A stretch of DNA of 13,170 bases, from positions 1-13,170 of the forward strand of contig JAKFBU010000046.1 in the NCBI GenBank assembly GCA_036676985.1, read 5' to 3'. Made by a program: the position numbers and the translations under genes. Below the pieces are notes generated by a model that was not told the DNA's origin, made no database searches, and saw only the letters and a list, made by a program, of their open reading frames with translations. Below, in pieces: positions 312 through 12,127 of the stretch. The DNA is from Candidatus Sericytochromatia bacterium (GTDB taxonomy: Bacteria > Cyanobacteriota > Sericytochromatia > S15B-MN24 > UBA4093). The stretch's first letter is position 1. Every line of letters begins with the position of its first letter.

Positions 312-340
312 TTGACCTGACAATCATATTATCGTAATAT
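312..340 (+). promoter_or_regulatory. sigma70-type promoter for the ncRNA-RT transcript
   Basis: TTGACC (312-317), 17-nt spacer, TAATAT (335-340). Predicted TSS is about 347. Confidence 0.75.
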
Positions 341-404
341 TGATCTGCCTGTAAGGAGCTTCCTTAAAGGAGCTGCCTTGAGGGGGAAAGGTAACCTTCA
401 ACAA

Positions 405-410
405 AGTCAA
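405..410 (-). promoter_or_regulatory. -35 half (TTGACT) of the split junction promoter
   Basis: Plus-strand AGTCAA at 405-410. On the minus strand it lies 4 nt before the predicted end of the repeat. Confidence 0.7.
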
Positions 411-504
411 GTTCACCAAGAACTTGATGAGTACCAGAAGCAGCCGCCACCACGGCGAACTGCCGACGAGAAGGGTGTGCATCCAGCACGCGTCTACCTG
501 TTCC

Positions 505-513
505 ATTCTATCA
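505..513 (-). promoter_or_regulatory. Extended -10 half (TGaTAGAAT) of the split junction promoter
   Basis: Plus-strand ATTCTATCA at 505-513. In the genome the hexamer 17 nt upstream is CCCTGG, which is not a -35. Confidence 0.7.
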
Positions 514-636
514 GTCCAGCCAGGCGGCCAGGGAACATTGTAACCTGGGCAAGTCTTGAGCGCGGGGGGACATTTGACGGGTAGTCGCCGCCTGACGCCC
601 TTGCCCCCCGCACTGACTTTCTCGAGCAATAATTAA

Positions 637-1926
637 ATGTCAAACGATTCATCACATGTGGGGTATCCTGACTGGTTCAGACCTAAGGGCTACCTCCATT
701 TTGATCTACCGATCCGTAACCCAAGGCAGATTAACCAGTATTTAAGCCATGTAAGTGACGACCGATGGGTATCAAGCCATGACTTTCTGCCTTTTATCCT
801 CAACGAGCAAAAAGTTCACCGTAAAAAACCGAGACCAGATAATAGCCATACTAAGCTTCGGCCAATTATGTATGCAAGCCATGCCGATGCTTTAATTTAT
901 TCGTATTACAGCAGCATACTTTCTGACAAATACGAAGACCTAATACGCGATACCAATACTGCCATTACATCTATAGCTTACCGTCGGTTTCCGGATAAAA
1001 AGAGTAATATTACATTCGCAAAAGAAGCTTTTGACTTCATTATGCAAGAGGGAAACTGCATTGCCTTAGCATATGATGTGACAGATTTCTTCGGCACTCT
1101 TAACCATGAAATTCTTAAGGCTAATTGGATTCGCGTCCTAGGGCACCAACATGAAAAGTTGCCTGCTGATCACTATGCCGTATATCGATCGTTAGCAAAA
1201 TTTTGCTTTGTCGATCGAAAGGCACTCATGAATGCTCTAGGCGTCACAAAGAAGGACCAGCTTCGCAAGGATCGGTTTTGTGATATATCAGAATTTCGAA
1301 CCCTAGTTCGAAATAAACACCGCCTAATTAATAAGAATCCTAATACCGATAAAGGGATTCCCCAGGGCTCATCTGTGAGCGCCGTCCTTTCTAACATTTA
1401 CATGATCGATTTTGATGAGCGACTTTCCGATTTAGCTTGCCAATTGAACGCATTTTATCGCCGCTATTGTGACGACATTATATTTGTATGCAAACCGGAG
1501 GTGGAATGGATTGCGACTCAAGCAATCAATCACGAACTTCTCCACCTTAATTTAAATGTAAACGGAGAAAAGAAGGACGTATCTGAATTTGCAATCTCAA
1601 ATGGCCGTCAGCAACTTATTGCGCAGACGAAACCACTTCAATATCTAGGCTTTGTGTTCGATGGTGAAAAGATTGTGATTCGCTCACCATCAATGGCAAG
1701 ATATTACCGAAAGCTCAAGGCAGGTGTTCGCGCTGCCAGGAATGAGAAGAAATTTAACAGATTACAACGGATGAATAAAAAATTACTCTATGGACGATAT
1801 TCATCTCTTGGAAAAAAGAACTTCATTAGTTATGTTAAGCGCGCCAGCAATGAAATGGCTTCTGTTGAAATGCTGAGGCAAATTCGCAAGCATTGGCCCG
1901 TATTGCTAAGAGAAATGGATAAGTAG
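637..1926 (+). CDS. drt2: Defence-associated reverse transcriptase, DRT type 2 (UG2)-like, 429 aa
   Basis: RT motifs: RPIMYASHADALIY, AYDVTDFF, GIPQGSSVSAVLSNIYM, catalytic YRRYCDD (YCDD at 1465-1476), LQYLGFVF. The N-terminal WFRPKGYLHFD, the size, the YCDD variant and the upstream ncRNA fit Drt2. No maturase or endonuclease domain and no retron VTG motif. Confidence 0.88.
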   Translation: MSNDSSHVGYPDWFRPKGYLHFDLPIRNPRQINQYLSHVSDDRWVSSHDFLPFILNEQKVHRKKPRPDNSHTKLRPIMYASHADALIYSYYSSILSDKYEDLIRDTNTAITSIAYRRFPDKKSNITFAKEAFDFIMQEGNCIALAYDVTDFFGTLNHEILKANWIRVLGHQHEKLPADHYAVYRSLAKFCFVDRKALMNALGVTKKDQLRKDRFCDISEFRTLVRNKHRLINKNPNTDKGIPQGSSVSAVLSNIYMIDFDERLSDLACQLNAFYRRYCDDIIFVCKPEVEWIATQAINHELLHLNLNVNGEKKDVSEFAISNGRQQLIAQTKPLQYLGFVFDGEKIVIRSPSMARYYRKLKAGVRAARNEKKFNRLQRMNKKLLYGRYSSLGKKNFISYVKRASNEMASVEMLRQIRKHWPVLLREMDK

Positions 1927-2388: not shown

Positions 2389-2417
2389 AGATAAATCAGA
2401 CCTTTTTTATCTTGTTT
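2389..2417. promoter_or_regulatory. Candidate Rrf2-family operator overlapping the suf TSS
   Basis: AT-rich imperfect palindromes: AGATAAA-N10-TTTATCT (2389-2412) and AAATCAGAC-N7-ATCTTGTTT (2393-2417), just downstream of the -10. Confidence 0.5.
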
Positions 2418-2471
2418 CACCCTCGCCCGGCCGGTAAGGTCGGAGAGGGGCAACGCCTTTCAGGAGCCACC

Positions 2472-4678
<2,207 letters not shown>

Positions 4679-6016
4679 ATGAAGCCCGCGATCGTCGAAC
4701 TCGTCCAGGACCCCACGGTGGCGAGCCTCCTGCGCACGCGGCCCGAGCTCCCCGAGACGGGGCTCATGAGCGTCGCCATGCTGCGCCGCGAGGCCGTCGA
4801 TCGCCTGAGCGCCCTTCCGATGCCGGGCATCAAGGACGAGGAGTGGCGCTTCACCAACCTCGCGCCCCTCAAGGAGCTCACGTTCCAGGCCCCCGAGCGC
4901 AAGCCCGAGGCCGTGACGCTCGAGTCCATCGAGCGCTTCGTCCTGCCCGAGGCCAAGGCGAGCCGCCTGGTCTTCGTGAACGGCGCCTACGCCCCGCACC
5001 TGTCGGACGTGAGCGCCCTGGGCGCGGGCATCGTCGTCAAGAACCTCGCGGACGCGGGCGACGAGGCCAAGCTGCTCGACAGCCACCTGGCGCGCCATGC
5101 GGCCTTCCGGGACGACGTCTTCCTGGCCCTCAACACGGCCTTCCTCGGGGACGGCGCGCTCGTGCACCTGGGCCGCGAACGGGTCGCCCCGGCCCCCTTG
5201 CACCTCCTGTTCGTGGCGGTGCCCGGCGCCGAGACCGTCGTCGTCCACCCGCGTGTGCTGCTCGTGGCCGAGGCCATGAGCGAGGCCATCGTGGTCGAGG
5301 ACTACGTGAGCCTGGCGGACGGCGTCACCCTCACCAACGCCGTGACGGAGCTCTTCCTGGCGGACGACGCCCGGATCAAGCACGTGCGCCTGCAGCGCGA
5401 GAGCCGCCAGAGCTACCATCTCGGCCGGTCGGCCGCGGTGCTCGGCCGCGACAGCTCGTACCACTCGCACGCGGTGACGCTCGGCGCGGCCTTCAGCCGG
5501 CACGAGCCCACGGTGCTCCAGACGGCCGAGGGCACGGACGCCAGCCTCAACGGCCTGGTGCTCCTGTCGGGCGAGCAGTTCGCGGACACCCACAGCGTCA
5601 TCGACCACGCCAAGCCCCACGGCACGAGCAACCAGCTGCACAAGTGCGTCCTGGGCGGCACGTCGCGCGGGGTCTTCAACGGCAAGATCCTGGTGCGGCA
5701 GCACGCGTCCCAGACCAACTCGGCCCAGGCCAACCGCAACTTGCTGCTCACGCAGAAGGCGCGGATCGATACCAAGCCCCAGCTCGAGATCTTCAACGAG
5801 GACGTGCGCTGCTCGCACGGCGCCACCGTCGGCCAGATCGAGCCCGAGGAGATCTTCTACCTGCGCAGCCGCGGCCTCTCGGAGGCCGATGCCCGCCACC
5901 TGCTCATCTTCGCGTTCGCGGCCGAGGTCCTCGACGGCCTGCCGGTGCCGTCCCTCAAGGACGACCTGCGCGACCACGCCCTGGAGCAGATGGCGTCGGC
6001 CAAGGAAGGACGGTAG
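4679..6016 (+). CDS. sufD: Fe-S assembly protein SufD
   Basis: EEWRFTNL, GVFNGKILV, IDTKPQLEIFNEDVRCSHGATVG, FYLRSRG, plus position in the operon. Confidence 0.95.
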   Translation: MKPAIVELVQDPTVASLLRTRPELPETGLMSVAMLRREAVDRLSALPMPGIKDEEWRFTNLAPLKELTFQAPERKPEAVTLESIERFVLPEAKASRLVFVNGAYAPHLSDVSALGAGIVVKNLADAGDEAKLLDSHLARHAAFRDDVFLALNTAFLGDGALVHLGRERVAPAPLHLLFVAVPGAETVVVHPRVLLVAEAMSEAIVVEDYVSLADGVTLTNAVTELFLADDARIKHVRLQRESRQSYHLGRSAAVLGRDSSYHSHAVTLGAAFSRHEPTVLQTAEGTDASLNGLVLLSGEQFADTHSVIDHAKPHGTSNQLHKCVLGGTSRGVFNGKILVRQHASQTNSAQANRNLLLTQKARIDTKPQLEIFNEDVRCSHGATVGQIEPEEIFYLRSRGLSEADARHLLIFAFAAEVLDGLPVPSLKDDLRDHALEQMASAKEGR

Positions 6017-6019
6017 GAC

Positions 6020-7269
<1,250 letters not shown>

Positions 7270-7270
<1 letters not shown>

Positions 7271-7749
7271 TGAGCTCTCCTAGTCAGCTCTACCAGGAAG
7301 TGATCCTGGAGCACAACAAGAAGCCCCGCAACTACGGCCTCCTCGCGGAGTCCAACCGGCGCGCCGAGGGTCGCAACCCGCTCTGCGGCGACCACATCAC
7401 GTTGACGCTCAACGTCGCGGACGACAAGATCGACCAGATCGGCTTCGAGGGCCACAGCTGCGCCATCTGCAAGGCGTCCAGCTCGATGATGACGAGCACG
7501 GTGAAGGGCAAGACCGTCACCGAGGCCGAGGAGCTGGTGCAGCAGTTCCGCGACATGGCCACCGGCAAGCTGAACGCCGAGTCGCCCGAGAGCCGGCTGG
7601 GCCGCCTCAAGGTGTTCTCGGGCGTGGCCGGGCTGCCCTCGCGGGTCAAGTGCGCGGTGCTGCCCTGGCACACGCTGCATGCCGCCCTCCACAACGAAGA
7701 GGCCGTGAGCACCGAGGGCAGCGCCGACCCGGTCGCCAAGCAAGGTTAA
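7270..7749 (+). CDS. sufU: SufU-type sulfur transfer protein (NifU_N family)
   Basis: LYQEVILEH..KPRNYG, NPLCGD, CAICKASSSMM, RVKCAVLPW. TAATG overlap with sufS. Confidence 0.93.
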
Positions 7750-7762
7750 GAAGGATTCGAGT

Positions 7763-8320
7763 ATGCCGAAGATCGCCGAGATCGAGATGACGCCCAACCC
7801 CAACGCGCGGAAGTTCGTCCTGAAGGACCCGCTGACCTACGGGGTCGCCCGCTCGTACGACAACGCCACGGTGGCGCAGTCGGACGCGCTGGCGACGGCG
7901 CTGTTCGCGATCCCGCACGTCTCCAACGTCTACTACCTCGACCGCTACCTGACGGTCACGCAGGACGGCGGCGCCGATTGGAACGACCTCTTGCGCGAGG
8001 TGGCCGTGCCCATCCGGGCGGCCGAGGCCGCGACGGCTCCGGCCGTGCCCCAGACCGCCCAGGACGTCTCGCACCTGGCCTCGGACCCCGAGTCGGGCGC
8101 GCTGCTGGTCCAGATCAACGAGATCCTCGACAAGCAGATCCGGCCCGCGCTCATGATGGACGGCGGCGGCCTGGAGATCGTGGGACTCGAGGGCAAGGAG
8201 CTGCGGATCCACTACCACGGCGCCTGCGGCACCTGCCCCAGCGCCACCTTCGGCACCCTGATGGCGATCGAGAACCTGGTGCGCAGCGTGGACCCCGAGC
8301 TCATGGTGGTGTCGGTCTAA
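7763..8320 (+). CDS. Nfu/NifU-family Fe-S carrier (Nfu_N plus NifU C-terminal domain)
   Basis: N-terminal TPNPNARKF, and C-terminal IRPALMMDGGG...GACGTCPSA with a CXXC motif. Confidence 0.9.
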   Translation: MPKIAEIEMTPNPNARKFVLKDPLTYGVARSYDNATVAQSDALATALFAIPHVSNVYYLDRYLTVTQDGGADWNDLLREVAVPIRAAEAATAPAVPQTAQDVSHLASDPESGALLVQINEILDKQIRPALMMDGGGLEIVGLEGKELRIHYHGACGTCPSATFGTLMAIENLVRSVDPELMVVSV

Positions 8321-8338
8321 CCTGGAAAGGAAGGCGAC

Positions 8339-8791
8339 ATGAAGCTGACGAAGGCCTCCGAGTACGGGATCCTGACGATGGTCCACCTGGCCAAGCAGCC
8401 GCCTGGTCAGCTGTCGGACATCGCCCGCATCGCCGAGGACGAGCGCATCCCCGCGTCGTTCCTGGGCAAGCTCGTGACGACGCTCGTCAAGGCGGGGCTC
8501 ATCCGCTCGCAGCGGGGCTCGCAGGGCGGCATCGAGCTGGCCCGTCCGGCCTCGGACATCACGCTCCGGCATGTCATCGAGGCGACCGAGGGCGAGATCG
8601 CGGTCAACGAGTGCACGTCGAGTTCGGCCTATGCCTGCTTCCGCAGCGGCTGCGCCGTGCAGGGCGCGCTGCGCTCGGCGCAGAACGCCTTCTTGGAAGC
8701 GCTGGAAGGGTTCACGCTGGAGGGGTTGGCGCAGCTGGACCGGTACCAGCCGCAGGCGGTGACGCTGACGCCACTGATGAGCGAGCGGTAA
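8339..8791 (+). CDS. Rrf2-family transcriptional regulator with three Cys (probable Fe-S sensor)
   Basis: MKLTKASEYG, IPASFLGK, LVKAGLIRSQRGSQGGIELARP..ITL..VIEA.EG, and a C-X7-C-X4-C cluster. SD-like GGAAGG upstream. Confidence 0.92.
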   Translation: MKLTKASEYGILTMVHLAKQPPGQLSDIARIAEDERIPASFLGKLVTTLVKAGLIRSQRGSQGGIELARPASDITLRHVIEATEGEIAVNECTSSSAYACFRSGCAVQGALRSAQNAFLEALEGFTLEGLAQLDRYQPQAVTLTPLMSER

Positions 8792-8894: not shown

Positions 8895-8936
8895 GATTTA
8901 TTGTGGGTATCAAGGGTACTTAGCCGACTACCCCGA

Positions 8937-10196
8937 TTAGGACGCCGCCGCGACCGGCCCCGCCTCGGGGGCGGGCGCGAGCTTGTCCAGGCGCCCGAAG
9001 AGGCGGATGGCAAGCAACATGGCCACGAGCATGAGGGCCGACCCCACGAAGAAGGCGATACCCGGCAACTCCATGCGCGCCTTGGGGCCCGTGAACTCCG
9101 CGAACAGCAAGCTCGAGAACATCGGCCCCACCACGCCCGTGAGGCTCATGAGGCTCGTGAGCGCGCCCTGAACGGCGCCCTGCTCGTAAGGACCGACCGT
9201 CCGAGAGACCAGGCCCTGGATGGCCGGGCCCGCGAGGCCGCCCAGGCTCGCGAACGTGAGGATGACGTACATCATCCAGCCCTGCGTCGCCAACCCGTAG
9301 AAGAGGAACCCGAGGGCCCCGATGAGCAGGCCCACGATGATCGCGCGCTGCTCGCCCAGCTTGGGCATGAGCACCCGGATGAGGCCGCCCTGGACGATGG
9401 CCGCCGTGAGGCCCACCACCGCCAAAGCCGCGCCGTTCTCGGCCGTGCCCCAGTGGAAGCGGTAGGTCGTGAAGAGGACCCAGGTGCTGTGCAGGGCGTT
9501 CTGCGCGAGGCCCATCAGGACGAAGGTGGACGTCAGGCCCATGACGACGGGGTACTTGCGGAGCAGCGTCACCCACGAGAAGGGGTTCGCCTTGTCGAGG
9601 GTGAACTTGCGCCGGTTCTCCACGGCGTGCGACTCGGGCACGATGAAAAGGCCGTACAGGAAGTTCAAGAGCGTGATGGCCGCTGCCGCGTAGAAGGGTA
9701 CGTGCAGCCCGAGGCTGCCCAGGAGGCCGCCCACCGCCGGGCCCACGATGAAGCCGATGCCGAAGGCCGCCCCCACCATGCCGAAGTTCTTGGCCCGATC
9801 CTCCGGGCTGCTGACGTCCGCGATGTAGGTCGTGGCCACCGTCAGGCTCGCGCCCGCGAGGCCCGCGAGCGTCCGGGCCACGAAGAGCCACACGAGGCTC
9901 GGCGAGAGGGCCATCATCAGATAGCTGAGGGCCGTGCCGAAGAGCGAGATCAGGAGCACCGGCTTGCGGCCCACCTGATCCGACCACGCCCCCAGCATGG
10001 GAGCGAACAGGAACTGCATCAGCGTGTAGACCGAGCCCAGAGCGCCGTAGTAGCGCGAGGCCTCCGAGAGGTCCCCGCCCACGAACTGGGCCACCAGCTG
10101 GGGCATGATCGGGATGATGAGCCCGATGCCGACGATGTCCAGGAAGATCGTCGTGAAGATGAACAGCATGCCGGCGGCCCGCCGAGTCGTGGCCAT
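8937..10196 (-). CDS. MFS drug:H+ antiporter, TetA/DHA1-like (substrate unknown)
   Basis: About 12 hydrophobic segments, [11 protein letters not shown], motif [20 protein letters not shown], motif [29 protein letters not shown] upstream. Confidence 0.92.
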
Positions 10197-10213
10197 GAAC
10201 CCCTCCCCCTTGC

Positions 10214-10250
10214 AAGAAAACAGAGCGTTCGCCCCGGTGGGCGAACGCTC
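10214..10250 (-). terminator. Intrinsic terminator between the secreted-protein gene and the MFS gene
   Basis: Perfect 12-bp stem 10223-10234/10239-10250, followed on the minus strand by TGTTTTCTT. Confidence 0.7.
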
Positions 10251-10288
10251 CTCTACATTAGCGCCTTTTAACCCGGCTGAAAAGCCTG

Positions 10289-11014
10289 TTACTGGCCGAA
10301 CAGACCGGTCGCGAGGTCCATGTCGACCCCGATGAACGTCAGGTTGGCGTTGCTGTCCGTGTGGTGGAAGTAGTGGCCGACGCTGAGGTAGGCGTTGGGC
10401 GCCACGCCGTAGGTCAAGTAGACGTTGGAGCCCGAGATCGACGTGGTGCCGGTCATGTGGTCCACCGCGAGGCCGGCCCGATCGCCGATCGGATAGAAGA
10501 CGCCGCCCATCACGCCCATCTGGGAGGCCGTGGTCGTGTCGCTGGGCATGGTGTTGTAGTAGCCGATCGTCCAGCTGCCGAGCGAGAAGCCGCCGAGGCC
10601 GAGCTCCTTGGTGAGCGAGGCGTAGGTGACGTTCTCCGAGGGACCGTTCGTGTTGAAGAGGTTGAGGCCGCCGATCGACAGGGCCGGCAGGAGCTCGCCC
10701 TCGCCGATAAGCTGGAGCTTGCCGTTGAAGACCTCGTTGCTCCCGTAGGTGTCGATGCCGAGCTCCAGGGCGCCGATCCCCGACAGGTCGCCGAAGGAGA
10801 GGCCGGGCAGCGCACCGAAGGTCAAGCCGTCCTGGATGAAGGGCGTGCGGTTGGGCGTGACGTAGGTGTAGACACCGATGTGGAGGTTACCCGGGGCGGT
10901 GACCTTGCCCGTCGGCACGTTCCAGATGGCCGTCGGGTAAGCAGCAGCGGGGCCGGCAGACAGGGTGGCCAGAGCGGCCATGGTGCCAGCCGCGATCAAC
11001 GTCCGTTTCAACAT
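10289..11014 (-). CDS. Secreted hypothetical protein, probable outer-membrane beta-barrel
   Basis: Signal peptide MLKRTLIAAGTMAALATLSAGPAAA. Gly/aromatic-rich alternating strands (SNVYLTYGV, AYLSVGHY, TFIGVDMDL). SD AAGGGAG and host-like codon usage. Confidence 0.75.
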   Translation of the reverse strand: MLKRTLIAAGTMAALATLSAGPAAAYPTAIWNVPTGKVTAPGNLHIGVYTYVTPNRTPFIQDGLTFGALPGLSFGDLSGIGALELGIDTYGSNEVFNGKLQLIGEGELLPALSIGGLNLFNTNGPSENVTYASLTKELGLGGFSLGSWTIGYYNTMPSDTTTASQMGVMGGVFYPIGDRAGLAVDHMTGTTSISGSNVYLTYGVAPNAYLSVGHYFHHTDSNANLTFIGVDMDLATGLFGQ

Positions 11015-11209
11015 TCAAGCTCCCTTATAGCGAGGCGATAAACGACGGTGCGACGCCCCCGACCGGGTCGGGACTCTTGGGGGGCGCCGGTTCTCTCTGC
11101 TTATTCCCCCGTGGCGGCAAACTAAGCAAGGGTTTTCGTGAAATGAGGGGGCGGGCGCCGAAATCGCCTGAGAGGCAAGTCGGGAGGTTTCGCCGACGAT
11201 AACCTCTCC

Positions 11210-12127
11210 ATGACGAAACGATATCGTTCGCTTTACTTCCTGCCCCTGCTGCTGGGCCTGGTGGGCTGCCATGCGCCCGCCACCGCGCTCACGGCGGTCG
11301 AGCAATCGGCCCGGGCGGCGGATAATGGCACGATCTCGGGCGACGTCCGGCGCCACGAGGGCTTCGCGTCCAAGCACCTCAGCGAGAAGCGGGACCTCTG
11401 GGTCTACCTGCCGCCCGGTTATTCCGAGAACACGCGCGATCGCTACCCCGTGCTCTACATGCACGACGGCAACAACCTCTTCGACGCGCGCACAGCCTTC
11501 ATGGGCAATGAGTGGCACGTGGACGAGACCGCCGAGCGCCTCATCCGCTCGGGCGAGCTGCCGCCCCTCATCATCGTGGGCGTCTCCAACACGCCCGCGC
11601 GCCTCGACGAGTACACCTGGCAGCGCGGCGAGGTGCAGGGCAAGCCCATGGGCGGCAAGGGCCCGCAGTACGCGCGCATGCTGGTGGAAGAGGTGAAGCC
11701 CTTCATCGACAAGACGTACCGGACCAAGCGCGATCGCGCCAACACGGGCGTCATGGGCTCGTCGCTCGGCGGCCTCATCTCCCTCTACCTGGCCCGGAAC
11801 AACGGGGACACCTTCGGCAAGATCGGGGCCATGTCCCCTTCGGTCTGGTGGAGCCAGCGCGCGGTGCTCGCGGACCTGAAGGGCCTGCGGACCGACGACC
11901 GGATCTGGGTCGACATGGGCACCCAGGAGGGCAGCGACCCCCAGGAGATGCTCGATGACGCGCGGGCCCTCAAGCGCACGCTCCTGGGCTTCGGCTACGT
12001 CTCCGGCCGCTCGCTCCAGTACGTGGAAGACGAAGGAGCGGGCCACAACGAGGCCGCCTGGGCCAATCGCACCCCGTACGCCCTGCGCTTCCTCTTCGGC
12101 ACGGCCTCCAAGCAAGTGGTAGAGTAA
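11210..12127 (+). CDS. Alpha/beta-hydrolase esterase (Fes/IroE-like putative esterase family), predicted lipoprotein
   Basis: VYLPPGY, RYPVLYMHDGNNLF, nucleophile elbow GSSLGG, SPSVWW, DMGTQE, catalytic GHNE. Lipobox LVGC. Confidence 0.88.
   Translation: MTKRYRSLYFLPLLLGLVGCHAPATALTAVEQSARAADNGTISGDVRRHEGFASKHLSEKRDLWVYLPPGYSENTRDRYPVLYMHDGNNLFDARTAFMGNEWHVDETAERLIRSGELPPLIIVGVSNTPARLDEYTWQRGEVQGKPMGGKGPQYARMLVEEVKPFIDKTYRTKRDRANTGVMGSSLGGLISLYLARNNGDTFGKIGAMSPSVWWSQRAVLADLKGLRTDDRIWVDMGTQEGSDPQEMLDDARALKRTLLGFGYVSGRSLQYVEDEGAGHNEAAWANRTPYALRFLFGTASKQVVE

Follow-up and report, generated by a model that had tools for sequence, protein, structure and literature searches.

The DRT2 system, a class 2 defence-associated reverse transcriptase (DRT), has been described as relying on a non-coding RNA (ncRNA) of ~280 nt, composed of a 5' hairpin and a pseudoknotted 3' scaffold, from which a template of ~120 nt, located between two ACA triplets, is converted by rolling-circle reverse transcription into tandem repeats (Tang et al. 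10.1101/2024.05.08.593200; Wilkinson et al. PMC12039810). In the same accounts, a TTGACA/TATAAT promoter with a 17-bp spacer is formed only across the junction between repeats, the repeat unit is divisible by three and contains a stop-free frame (neo) antisense to the ncRNA, and concatenated cDNA copies of the ncRNA carry the gene for the effector, Neo (10.1101/2024.05.08.593200; PMC12039810). A candidate DRT2 module located at positions 312-1926 of a 13,170-nt contig from a Candidatus Sericytochromatia assembly (GenBank JAKFBU010000046.1, GCA_036676985.1; the entire stretch is designated here as the window) was compared with this system and with its relatives. The module was found to consist of a gene for the Drt2 reverse transcriptase (RT) and, ahead of it in the same orientation, a promoter-like site and a structured leader of ~290 nt, part of which is present in an RNA library (Table 1). 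With a probability of roughly two in three, the module represents an anti-phage system of the DRT2 type (UG2, class 2) that stands alone, belongs to a divergent lineage and was acquired horizontally.

A preliminary description of this locus had reported a 429-aa YCDD RT and had placed it in UG2/DRT2, and both statements were borne out. The RT, with RRYCDDIIF as its active-site motif, scored 447.4 bits against the NCBIfam equivalog model for the antiviral reverse transcriptase Drt2 (NF041746; curated cut-off of 390) and 462.3 and 425.4 bits against the Drt2 models of PADLOC, the next PADLOC matches being RT_UG17 (87.6 bits) and Drt3a (74 bits). RVT_1 was the sole Pfam family identified, and the best solved relative was shown to be Klebsiella Drt2 (PDB 9c0i; E 2.8e-87, residues 10-417). 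In a six-sequence alignment, the RT could be aligned over its full length with Drt2 proteins of 424-445 aa, with the catalytic and family-invariant residues retained. Furthermore, 2551 proteins were retrieved at E ≤ 1e-30, many of the named ones being called Drt2. On the basis of these sequence comparisons, the RT is a divergent Drt2 (UG2).

Assignment of the element to a retron, a group II intron or another UG/DRT class was considered virtually untenable. The RVT_1 core is common to all of these, and weak matches to RT_UG17, Drt3a and the retron and group II RT models were indeed obtained; however, the scores for other NCBIfam families were far under their cut-offs (Drt3a 66.4/200, group II intron RT TIGR04416 65.6/300, retron St85 51.9/235), whereas that for Drt2 was above its own. 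Moreover, the RT is devoid of a maturase, endonuclease or effector domain, and an Rfam search of positions 1-2500 at E ≤ 1 yielded no group II intron or retron RNA. DRT10/UG17 and DRT3, other class 2 DRTs, are likewise described as combining an RT with an ncRNA that templates repetitive DNA, DRT10 needing a SLATT effector and DRT3 a second RT; the window differs from both in the bit scores given above and in that no partner gene is present.

The nearest non-self proteins were 47% and 45% identical to the RT, all others being at most 43% identical. In a midpoint-rooted tree of 120 sequences (FastTree, LG+gamma; proteins of <380 or >520 aa and duplicates dropped; support values not inspected), the RT grouped with these two proteins, outside the large proteobacterial clade which holds the canonical loci. 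No relative with accompanying DNA was closer than 43% among the genome contigs searched with the protein (30 loci, at most 41% identical) or with a six-protein alignment (80 loci, at most 42%), or among the metagenome contigs searched with a three-protein alignment (25 loci, at most 43%). The published DRT2 supplementary tables and covariance models may already cover the clade to which the window belongs.

The promoter at 312-340 and the structured leader of ~285 nt, both proposed in the preliminary description, were found to be present. The bare consensus match of the promoter is no better than chance, as seven such sites occur in positions 200-2500 compared with 3.5 ± 1.9 in shuffled sequence; the promoter and the 'GC..' RNA start of the window align with those of 27 canonical DRT2 loci, and an nhmmer profile of the 5' part, built from canonical loci with the window left out, gave a sole match in the window at 309-352 (7.2 bits, E 0.049). 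The statistical support that these comparisons lend to the leader alignment is thin. In total, 296 nt separate the -10 element of this promoter from the ATG at 637, and the minimum free energy (MFE) of 335-640 was calculated as -111.5 kcal/mol, compared with -96.4 ± 5.4 in shuffles (z -2.8; 0 of 100 as stable). The predicted hairpin at 348-383 occupies the place of the canonical hairpin after 'GC..', which is ~20 nt in length there. In a MAFFT alignment, AGTCAAG of the window was placed on canonical TGTCAAG, CATTCTA on CATTATA and GCGGCC on the pseudoknot strand, the first two corresponding to the -35 and -10 halves, respectively, of the split promoter. The canonical pseudoknot helix covaries in 28 relatives, with compensatory changes in four of its five pairs, and the candidate pair of the window lies at the expected places.

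With respect to the template, TTGACT and TAGAAT are present in reversed order on the antisense strand of the leader, and a 17-bp spacer between them (score 10/12) arises only if a unit of 123 nt is concatenated. Among 1000 dinucleotide shuffles of the leader, 8 (0.8%) attained a split-promoter score of at least 10, as did 79 of the 121 leaders of relatives. The unit, the length of which was set from the promoter spacing, is a multiple of three, and one antisense frame remains open through the junction in a threefold concatemer. The template start at 391 is located 7 nt past the 5' handle, as in the canonical loci and in the metagenomic locus L050, while the distance between the template end and the RT start is 123 nt in the window and 92-153 nt in 25 loci with an ACA call of 6/11 geometry (distances in nt of the two promoter halves from the junction). 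The placement at 391-513 possesses the 14/3 geometry of L050 and is the sole one with any repeat (GU at 391-392 and 514-515).

The predicted Neo unit has a grand average of hydropathicity of 0.70, compared with 0.43-1.34 for 31 canonical units. AlphaFold2 modelling of the 102-aa antisense translation as a single sequence predicted only two helices, at residues 44-56 and 60-80 (window positions 503-465 and 455-393, respectively), both of which fall inside 391-513, with a predicted local distance difference test (pLDDT) score of 82-84 over residues 61-80 and with the remainder disordered. These two predicted helices fit the two-helix repeat described by Tang et al. (10.1101/2024.05.08.593200).

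By analogy with Klebsiella DRT2, the leader would act as an ncRNA bound by the RT through its 5' hairpin (348-383) and its 3' scaffold (~514-636), and tandem DNA repeats of 123 bp would arise. After second-strand synthesis, each repeat junction would join TTGACT to TGATAGAAT across the 17-bp spacer, thereby creating a promoter that is absent from the genome. The resulting transcript would contain an endless frame of 41-residue hydrophobic helix-loop-helix units (DRMEQVDACWMHTLLVGSSPWWRLLLVLIKFLVNLTLLKVT), translation of which would arrest the infected cell. Toxicity, the reading phase and the precise position of the jump are predicted from this analogy.

The window resembles the Klebsiella pneumoniae system (KpnDRT2; PDB 9c0i) in encoding a single RT of ~425 aa with YCDD and no other domain, downstream of a same-strand ncRNA of ~280-290 nt with its own promoter and a 5' hairpin. 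The two also share -35 and -10 halves that are reversed on the antisense strand and would be separated by 17 bp in a concatemer, a unit that is a multiple of three, a stop-free antisense frame specifying a hydrophobic α-helical repeat of ~40 residues (predicted in the window), and a genome without an effector gene. In this regard, the earlier claim that the module lacks a protein effector was upheld for the genome, since all open reading frames (ORFs) between the RT stop at 1926 and the sufB start at 2412 are at most 58 aa and the PADLOC models gave zero matches for eight neighbouring ORFs and the antisense frame of the leader; it did not stand for the system, as the DRT2 effector Neo lies in the concatenated cDNA. 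Conversely, the window differs from KpnDRT2 in several respects. Its RT is ~40% identical to the canonical clade, ACA-1 and ACA-2 triplets are absent, the promoter halves are positioned 14 and 3 nt from the junction rather than 6 and 11, the -10 hexamer is TAGAAT in another codon phase, and the 5' hairpin is longer. Furthermore, the 3' scaffold is represented by one small hairpin rather than by a tower and a buttress, and models of the canonical scaffold are blind to it.

Locus L050, from a metagenome contig, is the most similar locus for which DNA was compared (RT 43% identical over residues 10-274). It shares with the window a predicted template starting 7 nt past the 5' hairpin, promoter halves in 14/3 geometry with a 17-bp spacer, and a unit of comparable length (120 nt, compared with 123 nt); its pseudoknot strand, GCGGCC, follows the jump site by 11 nt, compared with 10 nt for the candidate strand of the window. 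Unlike the window, L050 contains an exact 3-nt repeat (ATT), its -10 hexamer is read as Tyr-Asp, its Neo unit is unrelated in sequence, and two hairpins (tower and buttress, as read by eye) are kept.

Several observations weigh against a DRT2 ncRNA with a hidden gene in the window. No two ACA triplets are spaced by a multiple of three, and the unit with the 17-bp promoter is flanked only by GU and by no 3-nt repeat. Among relatives, a feature-finding script called ACA/ACA with 6/11 geometry in 7 of 49 loci and, in a second set, in 25 of 78 loci, other clades exhibiting other geometries (GTT at 8/9 and ATT at 14/3). In some leaders, both jump triplets were observed to have changed together within the same geometry, from ACA to ATC (L093, L102 and L116), GCA (L109) or ATA (L111). 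The template-jump model is supported because the triplets covary naturally in this manner (ATC/ATC, GCA/GCA and ATA/ATA); the window does not follow this pattern of its relatives, which was counted against the interpretation.

The leader had also been expected to match a DRT2 covariance model, and this expectation was not realized. Covariance model R1, which represents the terminal hairpin of 28 canonical loci and the structure of which was verified by covariation (87% of cells paired, a level attained by 0 of 500 shuffles), scored 5.4 bits in the leader (E 0.26 in 300 nt) and returned no match from the whole window at E ≤ 10, while the broader model R2, built from 30 matches of which two are probably spurious, gave 8.6 bits in the leader (E 1.4). 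An nhmmer search with a profile of the canonical 3' scaffold returned an E value of 47, and Rfam contained no relevant match, among them none to a DRT2 family, for positions 1-2500 at E ≤ 1 or for the whole window at the gathering score. R1 misses 14 of 39 non-training DRT2 loci and 56 of 84 loci of a wider set (28/84 matched), and because R1 and R2 are so narrow, the failure weakens the ncRNA part of the interpretation without refuting it. A hairpin-plus-pseudoknot descriptor was positive in 78 of 127 relatives, but also in 343 of 1500 background tiles (23%), for which reason the match of the window to this descriptor means little. An ncRNA with a hidden gene is plausible, although it breaks several canonical rules of the RNA; the boundaries of the template are inferred, because an ACA/ACA pair is absent, the covariance models are silent and the codon phase of the -10 hexamer differs.

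These results would also be accommodated if the RT belonged to the Drt2 family while its lineage (the window and the two relatives of 45-47% identity) produced a different cDNA and no neo, with the promoter halves and the open frame being coincidental. The position of the window clade outside the large canonical clade and the failed covariance and ACA comparisons are consistent with such a scenario, as is the false-positive rate of the split-promoter test on natural sequence, where 137 of 1500 control tiles from fetched loci (9%) attained a score of at least 10. In addition, the split-promoter finder returned no unit for L051, L015, L071, L010 and L017, divergent loci near the window clade in the tree, the product of which may differ, and gave weak calls for others; Tang et al. 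(10.1101/2024.05.08.593200), in what they state about divergent clades, call Neo annotation 'more challenging' there and suggest alternative mechanisms. However, the observed score is rarely attained by leader shuffles, the implied unit is open, is a multiple of three and coincides with the sole two predicted helices, and no other effector gene is present nearby. A different cDNA product was regarded as improbable.

Further points of the same adverse kind concern the hidden frame itself. A fully open antisense frame occurs in ~8% of leader shuffles and is weak evidence alone; a plus-strand frame of the leader (321-584) is also open. The AlphaFold2 model, derived from a single sequence, is of low confidence overall (mean pLDDT of 59), and the Shine-Dalgarno sequences preceding the in-frame ATGs are weak. 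Moreover, all 38 predicted Neo units compared from relatives read the -10 hexamer as Tyr-X, whereas in the window TGA TAG occupies the Tyr-X phase and the hexamer becomes D-R-M in the open frame.

The latter finding raises the question of decay, in which an intact RT would accompany a family neo frame closed by TGA TAG at the -10 hexamer and a lost jump repeat. The phase conserved in the family runs open over 39 codons, TGA TAG being its sole closure, the jump homology is down to 2 nt, the RT gene is single-copy in its genome, and Drt2 was found in one of 40 related genomes searched (36% identity). Nevertheless, the RT ORF is complete with intact motifs, and another frame, with ATGs, runs through the entire leader without a stop and specifies a hydrophobic two-helix unit of the typical kind. 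The module was also recovered at an identity of at least 99% from two groundwater metagenomes of another study, with a single G>A substitution at 1377, and the leader is present in an RNA library; decay was judged very unlikely.

In total, 11 sequencing runs from six studies were found to contain part of the stretch; two of them, from soil metagenomes, may be where this DNA originated. The RNA-library contig derives from a run (X10) without cover on the RT gene, suggesting a much higher abundance for the 5' part of the leader than for the RT message, although DNA carry-over is not excludable in this run, true ends are not readable from contigs, and lack of cover in runs X3, X4 and X10 carries no meaning. 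The contigs of four runs, in which rare molecules would not be visible, displayed no joints and no variation in the leader.

A second -10-like hexamer, TACAAT (542..537), also speaks against the preferred template and in favour of another, 382-546 (165 nt, 55 codons), in an otherwise identical system, the jump proceeding via GGG (382-384 and 547-549) and the junction promoter comprising TTGAAG, 18 bp and TACAAT. This is the sole candidate with both an exact 3-nt repeat and a promoter score of at least 9. Its flanks (368-383 and 544-557) can pair at -14.1 kcal/mol, compared with -2.4 to -13.6 kcal/mol in 15 canonical loci, and TACAAT is read in the open frame as Tyr-Asn-Val, which is the phase and residues of relatives; the ATG at 506..504 is located 30 nt downstream of this -10, a distance as in the L001 template. 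On the other hand, its -35 matches 4/6 only, and its 18-bp spacer departs from the 17 bp of all strong calls among relatives. Such a template would have its start within the 5' hairpin and would take in Pro/Gly-rich stretches predicted to be disordered as well as the pseudoknot strand (523-528), which in canonical loci lies outside the template, and its 55-residue unit would exceed all 31 canonical units (33-50 residues). While the longer template is rather unlikely, it was ranked second, after 391-513.

Other placements were rejected. A template at 399-521 (6/11 geometry) has partner triplets that differ from each other; for ACA at 401-403 as jump triplet, the resulting units (119 or 134 nt) are not multiples of three; and the combination of the -35-like CTTACA (355..350) with TACAAT implies a unit of 210 nt extending over the handle.

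The DRT2 lineage so far represented by this metagenome-assembled genome (MAG) and two metagenomic proteins might have a reduced and re-wired ncRNA, a proposal that we regard as tentative and as holding somewhat less than even odds. In this lineage, the template jump would rely on GU, a microhomology of 2 nt, in place of ACA/ACA, the halves of the promoter would be in 14/3 arrangement, the neo frame would be moved by one phase, with the -10 TAGAAT supplying the start codon, and the 3' scaffold would be without tower and buttress.

Table 1. Features of the DRT2 module and its leader (positions refer to the window; descending positions are on the minus strand)
Feature	Position	Strand	Basis and remarks
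Promoter of the ncRNA/RT unit: TTGACC, 17-nt spacer, TAATAT	312-340 (TTGACC 312-317; TAATAT 335-340)	+	Consensus scan 9/12; alignment; nhmmer
Stop-free antisense frame, 102 codons	324-632	-	Holds predicted Neo repeat; in-frame ATGs 506..504 and 482..480
Predicted DRT2 ncRNA, ~290 nt	347-636	+	Start set from aligned 'GCCT'; fold, alignment, RNA contig; both ends provisional
5' handle hairpin, 36 nt	348-383	+	MFE: 348-350 pair with 381-383, 352-362 pair with 369-380
RNA-library contig, 155 nt	358-512	strand not known from contig	Soil RNA-Seq run X10, zero mismatches
Preferred template, 123 nt = 41 codons	391-513	+ (read on minus after concatenation)	Inferred boundaries: promoter spacing, handle distance, GU repeat, helices
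Split-promoter -35 half TTGACT	410..405	-	Aligns with canonical TGTCAAG
Split-promoter -10 half TAGAAT	510..505, TG before it at 513..512	-	Aligns with canonical CATTATA
Candidate pseudoknot 5' strand GGCGGC	523-528	+	Complementary to GCCGCC 587-592; aligns with canonical GCGGC
Terminal G+C-rich hairpin (GCGGGGGG/CCCCCCGC)	562-611	+	MFE; inner hairpin with 7-nt loop 587-593 containing GCCGCC; covariance models reach only 5.4 and 8.6 bits at this hairpin
Drt2 reverse transcriptase	637-1926	+	429 aa, YCDD; family models, alignment, PDB match

The window represents an entire contig (C46) of a 79-contig genome bin of 4.68 Mb. A low-G+C island extends from 255 to 2400; the module itself is 40% G+C, and the RT gene is 40-44% G+C, compared with 62-66% in the flanks. 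Horizontal acquisition of the module, which sits between host genes, is part of the best explanation. The 5' neighbourhood is truncated at base 1 by the end of the contig. Directly downstream of the island lies a complete suf Fe-S cluster operon, with sufB, sufC, sufD, sufS, a NifU-like gene, an Nfu gene and a gene for an Rrf2-family regulator at 2412-8791. Three further ORFs (456, 241 and 366 aa) in 8901-12115 were without Pfam, NCBIfam or PADLOC match, and some of these may not be genes in such G+C-rich DNA.

Two other sequence features were observed in this region. A 16-nt imperfect direct repeat (14/16), at 34-49 and 2034-2049, brackets the low-G+C module at a distance of 2000 nt; a comparison around its copies, prompted by the idea of an insertion scar, revealed no wider similarity, and the repeat could be such a scar or chance. 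A 23-nt stretch of the template (450-472) is 78% complementary to a palindromic stretch just past the RT stop (1968-1990), and the palindrome at 1972-1987 may be a terminator.

The host had previously been described as G+C-rich and not enterobacterial, which agrees with its being a G+C-rich soil MAG. Its full-length rpoB was shown to be closest to those of Obscuribacterales (72-74%), Gastranaerophilales (71%) and cyanobacteria (67-71%). A second, partial rpoB is present on another contig of the bin (rpoB contigs C29 and C34) and contamination was estimated at 5.09%; the bin is therefore slightly mixed, and the placement of the window contig in that organism is not proven. SufS was set aside as a taxonomic marker because the taxa named by its matches (68-74% identity) are inconsistent.

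To our knowledge, DRT2 is the sole system with a gene that is absent from the genome and is put together through reverse transcription. The rules of this system, i.e. ACA triplets, 6/11 promoter geometry and a fixed reading phase, are derived from one proteobacterial clade. The window copy, from an uncultured soil bacterium (a bin akin to the non-photosynthetic relatives of cyanobacteria), opens no new category of system; it keeps the overall logic while breaking several of these rules, and therefore represents a useful test of which DRT2 features are essential, as well as a useful test for annotation pipelines, which would catch the RT and miss the RNA and the hidden gene. If the ncRNA is indeed reduced and re-wired as proposed, gene synthesis by rolling-circle reverse transcription would tolerate far more RNA change than the studied clade suggests.

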